From positions 1 to 45,225 of IMG/VR virus record IMGVR_UViG_3300049170_000040: a DNA stretch of 45,225 nt; one strand, given 5' to 3'. The DNA comes from a virus. Lineage: Duplodnaviria; Caudoviricetes. Numbering within the stretch: position 1 is the stretch's first letter; the number at the start of each line of letters is the position of its first letter. Under the pieces are notes generated by a model. The model saw only the letters and a list, made by a program, of their open reading frames with translations, made no database searches and had not been told where the DNA came from. A program made the translations under genes and the position numbers. Shown here one piece after another: positions 1,981 through 40,451 of this stretch.

Positions 1981-2370
1981 ATGAGCTCCATGTCCATCTC
2001 CGAGCGCCTCGAGAAGCAGCGCACCGTCCTGACGTGGCTGGAGTACCAGGCCGCGCAGACCCGCAAGGCGATCCGCCAGCTCGAAGCCGAGGAGAAGGAG
2101 GAAGAGCGGCGGCGGGCCGTGGCGCGCGCGGAGATGTCGTGGAAGGTCCTGCCCTCGCGGGCGGTGGAGGGGCAACCGATGCTGCACCGCGGGAACTGCC
2201 GCGTCGACCCGCGCCAGACTGGCCTCCTGTCGTCCGACGAGGTCTTCGTTGCACTGAGGGAGTTCCCGGCCATGGAGATGTGCGAGATCTGCAACGTGTT
2301 CAGCAGCCTCTCCCAGTTCGGGATCGAGAAGCCGCGGCCCCGGCGGCTGCCCGGCGGCGGGACGCCCTAG
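1981..2370 (+). CDS. DUF6233-like protein (coiled coil plus His/Cys domain)
   Basis: LHRGNC...CEIC motif; TAGCAT -10-like element 7 nt before ATG 1981 suggests a leaderless start. Confidence 0.55.
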   Translation: MSSMSISERLEKQRTVLTWLEYQAAQTRKAIRQLEAEEKEEERRRAVARAEMSWKVLPSRAVEGQPMLHRGNCRVDPRQTGLLSSDEVFVALREFPAMEMCEICNVFSSLSQFGIEKPRPRRLPGGGTP

Positions 2371-3293
2371 GAAGCCCGCTTCTTCGTGGCCTTCTTCGCC
2401 GTGGTCTTCTTGGCGGCCGTCTTCTTCGCGGGCTCCTTCTTCTTGGCCGCGGCCTTCTTCTTCGGCGCCGGCATCTGGTGGACGGTGGCGTCCTCGCCCG
2501 TCTCGCCGCGGGCTTCCTTCGCCTTGGCGACGGACTCCTCCAGCGCGGCCATGAGGTCCATGACCTTCCCGGCCGGCGCCTCCTCGCCCTCCGGGGCCTT
2601 CGGCTGACGGTGCTCGGCCTTCGCGTCGATGACCTCGGCCAGCGCCTCGCGGTAGTGGTCGACCAGCTCCAGGTCGTCGAGGCGGTCGACCGACATGGTC
2701 TCCAGGAGCGCGAGCGCGCCCTCGATCTCCTGCTCGGTGAGCGGGGTCTCGTCGGGGCGGAGCTCGTCCGGGGACCTCACTTCGTCGTCCCAGCGCATCG
2801 CGTGCAGCAGCAGCGCGTCGCCGTAGGGGCGGAGCAGGCCGAGACGCTCCCGGCCGCGGAGGGCGAACTTCGCCACGGCCACCTTCTCGTTCCTGCCGAG
2901 CGCCTGCCGGAGGAGCGTGTACGGCTTGGCTGCGACCTGGCCGTCGGCGCTGAGGTAGTAGGACGCCTCGCCGATGTGCCGGCGGTCGATGGAGTCCCAC
3001 GGGACGAACGAGACGATGTCGATCGCTTTCGCGGTCGGCAGCGGCAGGCCGGCGAGGTCGTCGTCGGTGATGGGGATGACGTTGTCCTTGGAGATCTCGT
3101 AGCCCTTGCCGATCTCGTCCTGGTGCAGTTCCTCGCCGTCGATCTCACACACCTTGCGGTAGCGGATGCGGCCGCCGTCCTTCACGTGGACCTGGTTGAA
3201 GGAGATCGCGTGCGACTCGGTGGCCGGCTCCAGCTTGATCGGCACGGTGACCAACCCGAAGCTGATCGCGCCGGACCAGATGTGGCGGGGCAT
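2367..3293 (-). CDS. ku: prokaryotic Ku (NHEJ DNA end-binding protein) with Lys/Ala-rich tail
   Basis: MPRHIWSGAISFGLVTVPIKL, GRIRYRKVC, IGKGYE, DLMAALEES signatures; KKTAAKK C-terminal tail. Confidence 0.95.
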   Translation of the reverse strand: MPRHIWSGAISFGLVTVPIKLEPATESHAISFNQVHVKDGGRIRYRKVCEIDGEELHQDEIGKGYEISKDNVIPITDDDLAGLPLPTAKAIDIVSFVPWDSIDRRHIGEASYYLSADGQVAAKPYTLLRQALGRNEKVAVAKFALRGRERLGLLRPYGDALLLHAMRWDDEVRSPDELRPDETPLTEQEIEGALALLETMSVDRLDDLELVDHYREALAEVIDAKAEHRQPKAPEGEEAPAGKVMDLMAALEESVAKAKEARGETGEDATVHQMPAPKKKAAAKKKEPAKKTAAKKTTAKKATKKRAS

Positions 3294-3641
3294 GCAGACC
3301 TCCCAGGCACCCCCCTGGGGACGGAATCCCACACTATGCAGGCCCTGGCTGTGATCGCACGCCTGGATGTTCCTGAGGCTGACAGCACAGCGCGGCCCCG
3401 CCTGCTCAGCGGCGGGCGGGGCCGTAACTGGTCCCCCGACGGGGGTGGCGGGGAGGCCGGCCCCCACAGCATGCACCTGAATCCGGCCAGTCGGGTAGAT
3501 GCTGCGGCTGAAAAAGAATGATCGTGCACGGGGACTGACAGAGGGGCGCCCGCGTCGTAACTTGACAGAGCGGTCGCCGATTGTTTGCAGCGACCCGCAA
3601 GGGCGCGGGGAGTACCCCGCGTCGGCGACCGCACCAGACAC

Positions 3642-3676
3642 CGAAGGCCCCTCCAGGCGGAGGGGCCTTCGTCGTT
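3642..3676. terminator. intrinsic terminator hairpin
   Basis: 13-bp perfect stem CGAAGGCCCCTCC/GGAGGGGCCTTCG. Confidence 0.7.
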
Positions 3677-3772
3677 CCTGTCAGCGAGACCAGCGCATAA
3701 CGTTCCCCTAAGCGCTGCGAGCACCCGGCCCGCGCTACACTCGCGGCTTTCGGACCACGCGGAGGAACGGCC

Positions 3773-3982
3773 ATGGAGTCAAGTCCCGACAAGCCCTGGC
3801 GAGTCACCGCCTTCGGAAGGGACGGAGGCCAGACATCGCTCGACTGCACGAGCGAGGACGATGCACAGTTGACCCTACGCGGGTTCCTGTTTGATACCAC
3901 CGCTGAACGCGCTCGCGTGGAGGAGTGGGAAGACGGTCGCTGGCGGCCGCATGAAACCCTCACCAAGCAGGACCTGCTGTGA
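3773..3982 (+). CDS. small hypothetical protein
   Basis: GGAGGAA RBS; TACACT -10-like element upstream; followed by a hairpin. Confidence 0.7.
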   Translation: MESSPDKPWRVTAFGRDGGQTSLDCTSEDDAQLTLRGFLFDTTAERARVEEWEDGRWRPHETLTKQDLL

Positions 3983-3997
3983 CAGGACGTGCGACCG

Positions 3998-4019
3998 GCC
4001 CCGCCTCCTAGGGCGGGGC
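3998..4019. terminator. bidirectional terminator between convergent genes
   Basis: GCCCCGCC/GGCGGGGC stem. Confidence 0.65.
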
Positions 4020-4031
4020 TTCGTTGTGCGG

Positions 4032-4514
4032 CTACAGCCCGATACCCTCGGACGCTGCATCCGTCCAGGCGTCTTCGTCGCTCTCCTCGCGAGGCAGCTG
4101 CGGTAGGGCGTGCTCGCCCGTCACGGGATTGAGGTAGCGGATCGTTAGGCCAAGGATCCGACTCGGATGCCGTTCGCGGTAGCGCGCGAAGATCGTGTCT
4201 GGGTCCTGGTTGGCCCCTTCGAGAGTGTTGCAAGAGTTGCACAGCCAGCCACGTACAAGCCCTGTCGCGTGATCGTGGTCGCAGACCAGGTCTCTCGCCT
4301 TGCCGCAGATCGCGCAGCGGCCGTCCTGCCACTCCGCGAGGGCGGCGGCGTCGCCGCCGGTGACTGCGTCGGCGGCGCATTCGAGACGCCATAGAACCTG
4401 CGCTTGCCCGGGAGTGCATCCGTTTCGCTCGGCACGCTCAATGAATCGCTGCTTTGCCTCGCCCCCTGGTGGGAGTTGGACGGGCCAGTACCAACAGACT
4501 GGGTTGACTGTCAT
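4032..4514 (-). CDS. endonuclease VII-family (His-Me finger) nuclease
   Basis: CAICG...LVCDHDHATGLVRGWLCNSCN motif; ATGA overlap with the resolvase. Confidence 0.85.
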   Translation of the reverse strand: MTVNPVCWYWPVQLPPGGEAKQRFIERAERNGCTPGQAQVLWRLECAADAVTGGDAAALAEWQDGRCAICGKARDLVCDHDHATGLVRGWLCNSCNTLEGANQDPDTIFARYRERHPSRILGLTIRYLNPVTGEHALPQLPREESDEDAWTDAASEGIGL

Positions 4515-5119
4515 GCCGTCACCTCACTCGCCTGGTCGTGGAGGCGTAGGGCCTGTGAGATGGCGCCGATGCTGGGGTTCTTCCCCTTGCTCTTCCCTTC
4601 GGCGATGCGGAGATGCGGCTGGATCTGGCGGATCGTGAAGCCGCGCTCCCGCAGAGCTGCGGCCTGGATGGTCAGCGCCTCCGTCATCACCGGCTTCCGT
4701 CCGCCGACCCGGCCGCGCTTGCGTGCAGCCTCCAGGCCATCCTTTGTCTTCCGCACGATGTCCCGTCGCCGGTCCTCGGCGAGGGCGAGGGCGAGGTCGA
4801 GAATCAGCGACCTCTCCTTGTGCTCGCCGGCCGCGATGCCCTCGAGCACCTTGACTGCGATGCCTCGCTCGAAGAGGTCGTTCAGGACGATGAGCCCTTC
4901 GAGGAGGTTGCGGCCCAGGCGGTCTACCTCCTGAACGCAGAGCATGTCGCCTTCGCGCACGTACTCGATCGCGGCCAACAGGCCGGGGCGTTCCTCGGTC
5001 AGGAGCTTGCCGCTCATCTTCTCTTCGAAGACCTTGATGCAGATCGGCTCAAGAGCGTCGTGCTGCCGCTGGGTGTTCTGCTTGTCGGTGCTGACTCGGA
5101 CCAGACCGACTAGCGCCAT
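4511..5119 (-). CDS. small serine recombinase (resolvase/invertase family)
   Basis: RVSTDKQ catalytic Ser, ERPGL, DRLGRN, GRVGGRK and C-terminal HTH; 202 aa. Confidence 0.92.
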   Translation of the reverse strand: MALVGLVRVSTDKQNTQRQHDALEPICIKVFEEKMSGKLLTEERPGLLAAIEYVREGDMLCVQEVDRLGRNLLEGLIVLNDLFERGIAVKVLEGIAAGEHKERSLILDLALALAEDRRRDIVRKTKDGLEAARKRGRVGGRKPVMTEALTIQAAALRERGFTIRQIQPHLRIAEGKSKGKNPSIGAISQALRLHDQASEVTA

Positions 5120-5272: not shown

Positions 5273-5332
5273 TGTATAGCGCGCTTGACGTCAGGGCGCC
5301 ATGGCTGCAATCTATGTGTAGCGCGCTACACA
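5273..5332 (+). promoter_or_regulatory. promoter with two operator palindromes
   Basis: -35 TTGACG (5285-90), 17 nt, CAATCT. Perfect 18-bp palindrome TGTGTAGCGCGCTACACA (5315-32) and imperfect copy TGTATAGCGCGCTTGACG (5273-90) overlapping the -35. Confidence 0.7.
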
Positions 5333-5358: not shown

Positions 5359-5745
5359 ATGAACCTCAGCATCGAGCAGATCCAGGACCTCTTCCACGGC
5401 CGCACCAACGAGGTCGACCGCGGCGACGAGTACGACGTCATCAAGCGCGAAGACGTCCTCGCCCTCGTCGACAACTGCGACATCGACACCGACGACGACG
5501 GCACCCCCCTCGACGACCAGTGGGAGATCCTCGCCGAAGCCCTCAGCGACGCCCCCACCGACAGCCCCCGCGAGCGCGCTCTCATCAACGTCGAGGCCGC
5601 GGCTCAGGGTCTGAACAAGGCTGTAGAGGAGCGCGACGCAGCGATCCGCGACGCCCTCAAGGTCGGCGCCTCCGTCATCTCCATCGCCGAACGCGCCGAC
5701 CTCAGCCGCGCACGGATCTACCAGATCCGCGACGGCCGCCGCTGA
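5359..5745 (+). CDS. acidic N-domain plus C-terminal HTH protein (Aca-like / Acr-HTH fusion candidate)
   Basis: GAGAGGGG RBS; very D/E-rich N-half; ASVISIAERADLSRARIYQIR HTH at the C-end. Confidence 0.7.
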   Translation: MNLSIEQIQDLFHGRTNEVDRGDEYDVIKREDVLALVDNCDIDTDDDGTPLDDQWEILAEALSDAPTDSPRERALINVEAAAQGLNKAVEERDAAIRDALKVGASVISIAERADLSRARIYQIRDGRR

Positions 5746-5760
5746 GTCAGAACACCGCAC

Positions 5761-5818
5761 CCACGCCCCTATGGTCAGGGGATGCACCTCTTCTCCCCGC
5801 GTGCGCGGGGATGGCCTA
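5761..5818 (+). CRISPR. two abutting type I-E CRISPR-repeat-like units, no spacer, no cas genes (solitary repeat unit)
   Basis: 5790-5818 CTTCTCCCCGCGTGCGCGGGGATGGCCTA closely matches the 29-nt I-E repeat (N5-CCCCGC-N4-GCGGGG-AT-N6). 5761-5789 CCACG-CCCC-TATGGTCA-GGGG-AT-GCA-CC-T keeps the same geometry. Confidence 0.7.
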
Positions 5819-5866
5819 CGGCAACAGTCGAGGCAGATTCCTCATCAAACGCAAGGGAGAAGTGCC

Positions 5867-6523
5867 ATGGACTCCACATACAAGGTGCTGGCGCGGATCG
5901 ACGCGCCCGCTGGCATGCCCGCGGAGAAGATTCAACGCGAGGTCATGTCCTACCTGTTCGATCACCCCAGCGTCCGCGTGCGCCTGCTGAAGGTCGACAC
6001 CTGGGTCGATGAGCAGCCCGACAACCTCGCCAACGGTTCCGAGGCGTACCTGGCCACGGCCACGATCGACACCCGCAGCGACCTGCCCTGGGAGGATCTT
6101 CACCGCATCCTTGGAGAGCTGATCGGCGACATCGAGCAGCCGTTGGCTGCGCAGGTGCTGAGGATCGATGAGCGGCCTGACGAGATCGACCAGATCATCT
6201 CCGCCTACCAGTCCCACGCCGACGACATGGTCGACACGCACTTCGACGGGACCGGCCCCCGTGAGCCCGAGCAGACCGTCAGCTTCTGGTGGTACAAGCT
6301 GCCTGCCGATCAGAGCGAAGTACCCGTCACTAGCGGAGGCACGTTCCTCGCCAAGCTGCAGGGCGCGGTACATGTCCCGACGCCAGGAGAGAAGGTGAGG
6401 CTGTTTGGCACTCCTCTCAGGGTCACTGATCGCCACACTGCCTACTCCGCCTTCATCGACGAGGATGGGACGAGGCGGACCGAGGTGCGAGTGGACGTCT
6501 ACGTGGATGTGCTCCGGGCCTAG
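5867..6523 (+). CDS. hypothetical protein (anti-defence candidate)
   Basis: AAGGGAG RBS before ATG 5867; no recognisable motif; co-oriented with the HTH gene and the repeats. Confidence 0.7.
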   Translation: MDSTYKVLARIDAPAGMPAEKIQREVMSYLFDHPSVRVRLLKVDTWVDEQPDNLANGSEAYLATATIDTRSDLPWEDLHRILGELIGDIEQPLAAQVLRIDERPDEIDQIISAYQSHADDMVDTHFDGTGPREPEQTVSFWWYKLPADQSEVPVTSGGTFLAKLQGAVHVPTPGEKVRLFGTPLRVTDRHTAYSAFIDEDGTRRTEVRVDVYVDVLRA

Positions 6524-6548
6524 CTCGACGCTCGACTCCTGGCACAGC

Positions 6549-6579
6549 AAAACGCCCCCGCCCAGACGGGCGGGGGCGT
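6549..6579. terminator. terminator ending the late operon (bidirectional)
   Basis: 12-bp stem ACGCCCCCGCCC/GGGCGGGGGCGT with AAAA on the left. Confidence 0.8.
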
Positions 6580-38960: not shown

Positions 38961-40451
38961 ATGGCCGATCGCGCGTTACTGGAAGAGTTCGCTGCCGAGC
39001 TAAAGAGGTGGCGTGACGTGCGCGGCATGTCTCAGTCGGCTCTCGCTACGGTCGTCGGTTACACGCCTTCGTATATCTCGAAGGTCGAGAGCCAGCAGCA
39101 GCGGCCTTCACGGGAGTTCGCCGAAGCGGCCGACAGGGAGCTGCGGGCCGGCGGCGCGCTTCGCCGGGCATTCCAGGCGCTTGGCGCCAAGCCGCGGGCC
39201 GAGGCGCCTCCGCGTCAACCGGCGGCGCCCGAGCCGTCGACGAGCCTTGTCGTCGAGCACGAGGACACGTCGCTGTACTACGACGGCAGCACGTACCGGG
39301 CGACGCAGCGTCGCCGGCTGTTCAACGGCGGCAGCGAGCCGATCACCAGCTACCTCATCCGCATCTCGGTCGACCGCTATCCCGGCGACCCAGAGCGGTC
39401 GAACCAGCACTACCGCGAGAACCCGCTCACCTGGGAAGAGATCGACCTCGGCGCCAGCATCGACGGCGAGCCGATCGGCTGGCGCGTGCAGCACGACCGG
39501 GACGCCTTCAAGGAGTTATGGCTGCTCTTCGAGAACGAGGACGGCCGATACCCGCTCTACCCCGGCGAGTCGGCGTGGCTGGAGTACAGCTACACCGTCT
39601 CGGACCAGAAATGGGGCACCTGGTTCCAACGGGCCGTGCGCCTACCGACGCAGCGCATCAGCGTCCAACTGGACTTCCCGGCCGAACTGGCGCCCGCGGT
39701 CTGGGGCACCGAGACCACGATGACCGCCACCGGCGGGCCCTTCCGCAATCCGATCCGTTCCTCCACGGAGGACGGGCGGCGCGTGTTCTCTTGGAGCATC
39801 GACGAACCACCCCTTCACGCCCGATACCGCCTGGAGTGGAAGTTCCGGGCCAAAGCGATCAAGGAGCCGAATCTGAACGGAACCGCCGACACGGCCAGCG
39901 CACGCATGGCGGCAATCGGAATCGTCCAGGAGGGCGACCCGATCCTCACGACGCCTGCCCGACTGTTCTCCCTGCCCGACGAGGCCGAGGACGCGCGCCG
40001 CGTCGTGGCCGAGCTGAACTCGGCGGCAGACCGCGCGGCCGGCGTTCACAACTTCGGCAAGGGCATGGGCATCGCAGCCCCGCAGATCGGCATCAACCGT
40101 GCCGCCGCGATCATTCGCACCCCCGAGGGCGAATCGATCACCCTGTTCAACCCTCGAATCATCGAGGACGGCGGCGGCTTCGACGAACAGTACGAAGGGT
40201 GCCTGAGCTTCTTCGACGTCCGCGGGATGGTGCCCCGCCCCATGTCGATCAGCGTCGAGCACACGGACATCGACGGTCAGCAGCGCATCACCATCTTCGA
40301 ACGTGGACACGCCCGACTCGTCGCCCACGAGGTCGACCACCTGCACGGCGAGCTGTACCGGTCGAAGATGCGCCCCGGCGTCGAGCCCATCCCTGTCTCG
40401 GAGTATCGCGGCACCGGCAGCACGTGGCAGTACGGGCAGGTGCAGTCGTGA
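38961..40451 (+). CDS. XRE-HTH / beta-sandwich / peptide deformylase fusion
   Basis: N-terminal HTH_3; all three PDF motifs present: GMGIAAPQIG, EGCLS, HEVDH. Confidence 0.9.
   Translation: MADRALLEEFAAELKRWRDVRGMSQSALATVVGYTPSYISKVESQQQRPSREFAEAADRELRAGGALRRAFQALGAKPRAEAPPRQPAAPEPSTSLVVEHEDTSLYYDGSTYRATQRRRLFNGGSEPITSYLIRISVDRYPGDPERSNQHYRENPLTWEEIDLGASIDGEPIGWRVQHDRDAFKELWLLFENEDGRYPLYPGESAWLEYSYTVSDQKWGTWFQRAVRLPTQRISVQLDFPAELAPAVWGTETTMTATGGPFRNPIRSSTEDGRRVFSWSIDEPPLHARYRLEWKFRAKAIKEPNLNGTADTASARMAAIGIVQEGDPILTTPARLFSLPDEAEDARRVVAELNSAADRAAGVHNFGKGMGIAAPQIGINRAAAIIRTPEGESITLFNPRIIEDGGGFDEQYEGCLSFFDVRGMVPRPMSISVEHTDIDGQQRITIFERGHARLVAHEVDHLHGELYRSKMRPGVEPIPVSEYRGTGSTWQYGQVQS

Follow-up and report, generated by a model that had tools for sequence, protein, structure and literature searches.

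In a 45,225-nt contig of a soil phage, two repeat-shaped units that abut each other stand in front of an orphan gene, and this element is best described as a Racr-like variant that, judging from models of two loci, possibly acts as a natural translation switch sensing host Cas6. In the reading favoured here, to which we assign a probability of about 0.45, a promoter in unit 1 and one Cas6e cut would give two products, a 29-nt handle-hairpin RNA and an mRNA whose ribosome site is freed. The virus record is the whole contig (hereafter the window; G+C 67.8%), and terminase, capsid, tape-measure and lysis-type genes were recognized by eye in its ORF list. The cassette and its neighbourhood contain the following features:

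5273..5328, + strand: upstream HTH gene's promoter, containing a conserved operator-like box twice, as a direct repeat with 42-nt spacing
5359..5745, + strand: 128-aa acidic protein with a C-terminal HTH (phrog_686 HTH, E 2.8e-7)
5761..5789, + strand: unit 1, a repeat-shaped element (outer stem and handle) with a probable -10 box inside
5770..5775, + strand: TATGGT, a TANNNT-type -10 box in the unit-1 loop, with predicted +1 at ~5782
5782..5789, + strand: crRNA-like 5' handle of 8 nt, of which 5784-5787 pairs with 5862-5865 near the start codon in the predicted fold
5790..5818, + strand: unit 2, a very probable type I-E repeat mimic, with a hairpin at 5795-5810 and a predicted Cas6e cut between 5810 and 5811
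5831..5865, + strand: diverged inverted copy of unit 2 and the unit-1 handle, the 3' half of the predicted rod
5855-5862, + strand: Shine-Dalgarno (SD) region, inside the inverted copy 5831-5865
5867..6523, + strand: 218-aa orphan gene, a candidate counter-defence cargo, with no family match
6552..6579, called on the - strand: 12-bp terminator-like hairpin closing the cassette

The two units lie, letter for letter, where the preliminary description had placed them. Unit 1 abuts unit 2 with a period of exactly 29, and the pattern CCCC-N8-GGGGAT has two matches in the 45,225-nt contig, namely units 1 and 2 (0.20 expected; two matches reached in 0 of 100 shuffles). The upstream HTH protein has 62 database matches, and those with names are from Streptomyces. 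The same two boxes flank a TTGAC -35 element in 10 full-length HTH homologues; on sequence grounds, the boxes at 5273-5328 are a putative operator of the HTH gene, and Aca-like autoregulation is a guess. An HTH gene with operator-like promoter boxes, whose binding is putative, is the arrangement looked for in acr-aca loci, and no match to known Acr or Aca proteins was found in Pfam, PHROGs or PDB sequences, all of which are general libraries. The HTH-gene promoter is a possible source of read-through RNA across units 1-2, and no terminator follows the HTH gene here, unlike in most homologues; among close homologues, the downstream region mostly ends in a terminator. In the closest relative (L001; HTH identity 81%, with matching flanking phage genes), a terminator directly follows the HTH stop, and 5746-6550, comprising units 1-2 and the orphan gene, is therefore an accessory insert of ~800 bp. 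The cassette had no match in Rfam, and neither its DNA nor the HTH protein matched GenBank phages. A single 1,860-nt contig (depth 271) covers both units without variant letters; because its sequencing run may be the source of the window, it argues only against an assembly join. Accessory genes beside the cassette (window 2367-5119) encode Ku (PF02735), endonuclease VII (PF02945) and a serine resolvase (PF00239), and Ku might provide repair help for CRISPR-made breaks. Elsewhere in the window (38961-40451, +), an XRE-HTH is joined to a peptide deformylase domain in a 496-aa protein.

Unit 2 is very probably a mimic directed at Cas6e. Its earlier assignment as a type I-E repeat was upheld, as unit 2 is identical to Streptomyces array repeats at up to 25 of 29 positions and, at 19.5 bits, ranks first of 90,394 window positions when scored with a matrix built from 354 repeats of 19 host loci. 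Folded alone, it forms a hairpin of 6-7 bp with a 4-nt loop; the 58-mer with both units is no more stable than its shuffles (z -0.18). By the standards set for Racr elements, unit 2 matches the host subtype in sequence and fold and is intergenic on a mobile element with no cas genes or array nearby (13 ORFs scanned against Pfam). Whether it counts as solitary is questionable: within 100 bp of it lie unit 1, identical at 15 of 29 positions yet beyond chance, and the diverged inverted copy downstream. The handle following unit 2 has U at -2, where host repeats have C (0.96). Leads like that of unit 2 were found in 12 of 341 genomes, none of them in a repeat-leader-ORF cassette with an extended complement. 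Since Cas8e is present in 38 of 91 Streptomyces genomes, cognate hosts should be common.

The promoter of the cassette probably sits in unit 1. With the 6-7 nt that usually separate a -10 box from +1, TATGGT predicts a start at A5782, the first handle base, which is also where a Cas6e cut after unit 1 had been proposed. In S. coelicolor, 80% of start sites have TANNNT as their -10 motif, the -35 being less conserved (PMC4895711). Within the 60 nt upstream of unit 2, TATGGT is the sole TANNNT, 14 nt before that unit, and the 60 nt preceding unit 1 contain none; by chance, a TANNNT would fall in a 13-position slot in 1-4% of cases. Exactly one TANNNT was also found 3-38 nt before the first repeat in 11 of 11 phage mini-array loci tested (L015, L006, L007, L021, L036, L069, L334, L342, L347, L339 and L441, with L335 left out), of which ~8 are independent and one, L334, was first found by a pattern containing a -10. 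The background is 4% of 55-nt spans in the contig, or about 16% at its intergenic rate, and three of five host mini-arrays have one TANNNT before the first repeat. A sigma-70 scan did not find a promoter, and the -35 of TATGGT is not convincing. Because the predicted transcript starts at A5782, a single Cas6e cut, in place of two, is likely enough to give a guide-less RNA of 29 nt. The handle-and-hairpin RNA of 29 nt (5782-5810) put forward in the preliminary description is thus plausible as a product, while a promoter and one cut are a likelier origin for it than the two cuts suggested there.

The leader of 88 nt that runs from 5782 up to the AUG is predicted to fold as a single rod of -38.7 kcal/mol (z -3.96, matched in 0 of 200 shuffles), which spans nt 3 to 1 nt before the AUG. 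Positions 5790-5797 in unit 2 can pair without a mismatch, over 8 bp, with the ribosome-site region 5855-5862. This pairing, which was noticed after the fact, was missed by the earlier reading, as was the -10 box in the loop. The predicted probability of the unit-2 hairpin is 0.95-1.0 until 5855 is made and 0.0 from 5865 on, so that the Cas6e hairpin is the dominant fold during the first ~75 nt and the rod is then about 3.9 kcal/mol more stable. Forcing the Cas6e hairpin in the full leader costs 3.9 kcal/mol, with the ribosome site still paired to 5784-5794. Since the full leader at equilibrium no longer contains the Cas6e hairpin, the switch could work only if there is a kinetic window or if the enzyme captures the hairpin. 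Type I-E Cas6e cuts at the hairpin base (PMC4288178), and a cut between 5810 and 5811 would therefore separate the strands of the rod; the predicted probability that the SD is unpaired is 0.19 for the uncut versus 0.45 for the cut RNA. That translation of the 218-aa gene depends on this cut is a serious, if tentative, possibility.

A second locus (L261/L435), which was examined once the idea of a switch had arisen, has the order -10 box, two abutting repeats, leader and ORF. Among the 23 candidates checked, only this locus and the window show such a promoter-repeat-leader-ORF layout (n=2); the only longer complementary run among these candidates, in L102, was rejected as an inverted palindrome pair. 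The first repeat of L261/L435 can pair perfectly over 8 bp with the ribosome site of that locus, pairs crossed between the window and L435 reach only 5 bp, and this repeat departs from the host lead differently than unit 2 does. The leader fold has a z of -4.3, and the predicted probability that the SD is unpaired rises from 0.18 to 0.56-0.61 upon cutting. An 8-bp complement is reached by 7 of 311 background ribosome sites for the window and 4 of 311 for L435, and by 0 and 1, respectively, of 285 host repeats. Judged by duplex energy, pairing with the 5' strand of the window is at least as good for 41 of 311 background sites, as compared to 10 of 311 for L435. Five of the eight pairs come free, since every I-E repeat contains an anti-SD-like CUCCC.

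Downstream in L435 are a small acidic ORF, which found no relative but itself and one weak match in 401 genomes, and then a Cas8e homologue (PF09481, E 1e-43). The latter (L435:3818-5323, - strand, provirus G405) is a full-length homologue of Cas8e (Cse1) with 501 aa, located amid phage tail genes, and is by homology a candidate Cas-derived anti-CRISPR. Cas8-derived viral inhibitors have a precedent in AcrIB3/AcrIB4 (Katz et al., bioRxiv 10.1101/2023.06.24.545427), which the L435 gene resembles as a lone Cas8-family gene in a provirus behind repeats. Unlike AcrIB3/AcrIB4, it is a full-length (501 aa), type I-E candidate, and the cargo of the window has no detectable Cas homology.

In the proposed mechanism, the RNA would start at A5782 from the -10 box in unit 1, and host Cas6e would cut the nascent RNA once, between 5810 and 5811, during or soon after transcription. 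Without Cas6e, the rod would keep translation of the 218-aa gene low; with Cas6e, the blocking strand would be separated and the gene translated, so that its product would be made mainly in hosts with CRISPR. The 5' piece, a 29-nt guide-less crRNA mimic, would stay on Cas6e, and possibly on Cas5e too, as a decoy. The shortest spacer named as active is 14 nt (PMC5159557), and hence an RNA with no spacer at all could act as nothing but a decoy. A point against this mechanism is that a transcribed 5' end carries a triphosphate whereas crRNA has a 5'-OH. In E. coli, all 8 handle bases are needed by Cascade, which bound 5'-32P-labelled crRNAs (PMC4288178), suggesting that a non-hydroxyl 5' end need not block binding, although triphosphate was not among the ends used. 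The fuller picture of a natural CRISPR sensor in Streptomyces phages, in which Cas6e unlocks the leader, counter-defence is made only in CRISPR cells, a spacerless 29-nt mimic is left and the promoter evolved in the first repeat, is more tentative still.

The weakest part of this picture is that the 218-aa protein could be a counter-defence cargo, a role suggested by its context alone. The protein had no match in Pfam or PHROG, and nothing matched it in viral contigs or plasmids; three relatives were found among 1.84 billion proteins, one of them from Streptomyces aureocirculatus. A low-confidence model (pLDDT 53, pTM 0.38; best TM in the ESM Atlas about 0.4) has an N-terminal beta-alpha-beta-beta-alpha layout and a beta-rich end.

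According to a review (PMC8621321), an engineered Csy4 translational activator (Du et al. 2016) works, and Cse3 is among the nucleases that can be used. The window shares with such activators a cis-repressor strand, a Cas6 hairpin and a ribosome site, with cleavage freeing the site from the repressor (PMC8621321). Unlike these devices, it is natural and phage-borne, its repressor strand overlaps the repeat and its uncut fold excludes the Cas6 hairpin. If the switch is true, it would be the natural counterpart of this synthetic-biology device. Phage repeat mimics have so far been decoys or guides, and a repeat used as an input that senses host Cas6 would then be a third use; genes behind such leaders could also offer a route to new anti-CRISPR proteins. 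Neither natural Cas6-activated translation nor zero-spacer phage repeats were found in the literature covered, outside of which the supplementary SRU and Cracr tables may list loci.

Racr elements, or SRUs (RacrIE1-2, RacrIC1, RacrIF1; PMC10651486), are similar in being intergenic phage mimics of a host-subtype repeat with no cas genes, and in having their own promoter or a transcript shared with the neighbour gene and predicted Cas6 processing. RacrIF1 yields a handle-less 5' product of 70-76 nt that grows a Cas7 filament (PMC10651486), whereas the product predicted here has 29 nt, a handle and no room for the backbone. Unlike in Racr, the repeat of the window lies in a 5' leader and is predicted to pair with the ribosome site. 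It is nevertheless conceivable, if unlikely, that the element is a plain solitary repeat of the Racr kind, with unit 2 giving a decoy RNA from a promoter in unit 1, a fossil hairpin in unit 1 and an incidental pairing with the ribosome site. All that speaks for unit 2 as a repeat mimic and for the -10 box also fits this explanation, and the anti-SD signal is weak by energy. Inhibition of a I-E system is known for RacrIE1/2, and RacrIC1 shares a bicistronic RNA with an acr gene, which it follows at 11 nt (PMC10651486). However, it leaves unexplained both the whole-leader complementarity to unit 2 and the matching 8-bp complement of L435's own, and an element acting purely as a decoy would be weakened by a rod in which the Cas6e hairpin is lost.

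The repeat shape of unit 1 exceeds chance, yet the unit is no longer a normal repeat. Over its full 29 nt, it is identical to unit 2 at 15 positions and to host repeats at no more than 16, and it scores -13.6 bits (outer stem 11.3, handle 2.5, lead -7.6, interior -19.8), with 348 window positions scoring equally high. By comparison, its outer stem and handle together score 13.9 bits, a value reached by 12 of 3,000,000 Markov-background positions (4e-6 per position; 3.6e-5 over nine offsets) and at 3 of 90,394 window positions, unit 1 among them. Its handle has the host-preferred base at -8, -7, -6, -3 and -2, and E. coli Cascade reads a subset of positions base-specifically, among them -7, -3 and -2 (PMC4288178). 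Unit 1 thus has the outer CCCC/GGGG stem and the conserved 8-nt handle of type I-E repeats, but not their six-pair stem with inner G-C/C-G pairs and a 4-nt loop. Folded alone, it forms a hairpin of 5 bp with a 6-nt loop, and its inner pairs 5-6 are T-A followed by an A.C mismatch, where 294 of 297 host array repeats have G-C/C-G. Mimicry of a second host repeat type was considered and rejected, as no array of the unit-1 stem type was found in the 251 Streptomyces genomes sampled; 46 of these had 1-3 scattered matches, and none of the 7 contexts inspected was an array.

Conservation of unit 1 among homologues, on which its proposed role had been made to depend, was not borne out. HTH-family loci were collected by four overlapping searches (14, 13, 40 and 5 loci), and the unit-1 hairpin was absent from all 49 downstream regions compared (L024, L036, L061 and L067 left out); L015 (HTH identity 79%), the nearest relative with a repeat, has a TANNNT 12 nt before its first repeat, and the G arm is absent. 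The probability of the unit-1 stem is 0.05-0.19 in nascent read-through RNA and 0.8-0.88 in longer read-through folds. That unit 1 is itself cut efficiently by Cas6e is accordingly doubtful, and the suggestion of a second Cas6e substrate is not supported, given the lack of conservation, the atypical inner pairs, the low nascent stem probability and the lack of a host array in the genomes sampled. The opposite suggestion, a chance hairpin, is correct insofar as the hairpin is not conserved, but the outer stem and handle are far beyond chance. Unit 1 is likely the cassette promoter built on a decayed repeat, its hairpin, in our reading, being what remains of a first repeat that became a promoter and not a second site that is cut efficiently.

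These data also bear on a two-cut model, in which RNA reading through from the HTH promoter would be cut by Cas6e after both units and a 5'-OH 29-mer would tie up Cas5e and Cas6e. The outer stem and handle of unit 1, the period of exactly 29, the absence of a terminator between the HTH gene and unit 1, the stem probabilities in longer read-through folds and abutting repeats in five other phage loci would all fit this model. It is made improbable by the missing conservation of unit 1, inner pairs unlike those of 294 of 297 host repeats and the low stem probability in nascent RNA; moreover, a 1-nt loop change impaired processing of a Salmonella I-E Cracr repeat (bioRxiv 10.1101/2024.10.29.618823). 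A fixed 29-mer also does not seem to be conserved, since the clearly abutting I-E repeats of the five other phage loci have periods of 29 (L036), 29 (L069), 27 (L261), 26 (L342) and 22 (L347), and the upstream handles at these junctions are, read by eye, degenerate or cut short; that of the window is intact.

Pattern scans of viral contigs yielded 0 (exact tandem), 2 and 15 loci; 10 of the 15 were unrelated, L339 and L335 are doubtful as abutting repeats, and L261 came from another search. In L036 and L069, the period of 29 occurs where two modules of different repeat types are joined; L347 is also a module join and L342 an array end. Because the spacing varies and the handles are degenerate, abutting junctions look like compacted joins, not like a conserved 29-nt product. 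The I-E mini-arrays L069:193-475 (+), L036:3235-3416 (-), L347 and L342 stack two repeat-type modules with zero or negative spacing at the join, and L036 and L069 adjoin lysis or tail-type genes; no targets of these four mini-arrays were found in 63 cas-region loci. In the host I-E arrays L108, L119 and L074, a single spacer has been lost precisely, so that two repeats now abut, and zero spacing may arise by this route. Any repeat that has another match within 100 bp is dropped by SRUFinder (PMC10651486), and tandems such as L261 would consequently fall outside the SRU census. Even without a switch, abutting repeats recur in actinophage I-E cassettes and are filtered out by searches for solitary repeats.

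A looser tandem pattern, run on about half of the metagenome collection, matched 123 loci (121 distinct rows). Among the matches listed were palindrome pairs (mostly of a kind that we take to be REP-like), chance matches and host arrays, and no homologue of the cassette. An element that is dead or unrelated to CRISPR, such as a relic in decay, an operator for a protein around the -10 box or palindromes of the REP-like kind, would be in line with most of the 123 tandem-hairpin matches being REP-like pairs, and an inverted repeat over a -10 box fits an operator. This explanation is nevertheless highly improbable, as unit 2, lead and handle included, agrees with Streptomyces array repeats, occurs once in the contig and is placed where relatives carry I-E mini-arrays.

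Such relatives are four distinct HTH loci (L006, L007, L021 and L015) with I-E repeat-spacer-repeat cassettes at the same place. Cracr arrays and CreR/crlRNA (bioRxiv 10.1101/2024.10.29.618823; 10.1101/2023.03.03.530964) belong to the same family of phage I-E repeat cassettes, and the related loci found here resemble them in having 15-32-nt spacers, multiplexed modules and degenerate terminal repeats. Unlike them, the window has no spacer or second repeat after unit 2, and no PAM-flanked seed match in a cas or toxin promoter was found among the Streptomyces searched, from which the true host may differ. The accessible text of these two preprints does not describe a zero-spacer junction or a promoter within a repeat. 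A guide of this type, in which the unit-2 handle and the sequence after it would load Cascade and silence a host or rival-phage gene, would accord with the likeness of the mini-arrays in these four HTH loci to host mini-arrays beside cas8e and with viral RNAs that silence I-E cas promoters (bioRxiv 10.1101/2024.10.29.618823), but is the least probable explanation given the missing second repeat, 0 nt between units 1 and 2, the U at -2 in place of the host C, a PAM-plus-seed pattern that was rarer than its reversed control (7 of 401 Streptomyces genomes; short seeds could escape) and no AA-PAM match in 63 cas-region loci.

Several related arrays were observed along the way. One spacer is near-identical across three different phage contigs (L006:3211-3300, L007 and L313), with a related spacer in L021, and resembles a host mini-array before cas8e in L396. 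Host mini-arrays of two repeats near Streptomyces cas8e, often with two repeat types (CreR-like), are found in L389, L396, L398, L399 and L400. The spacer of L263 has 11 PAM-proximal matches after AAG at L390:3028 (+), over a TTGAC box near cas8e; this match is single and weak and may be due to chance. A solitary I-E-like hairpin with handle is conserved in three Streptomyces genomes (L444, L446 and L452), beside a convergent gene. Finally, the GenBank phage Cumberbatch (MT451982.1; L441:920-1230) carries an unannotated I-E mini-array of six repeats spaced by about 49-61 nt, together with a -10 box, and this culturable phage could be used for testing such arrays.
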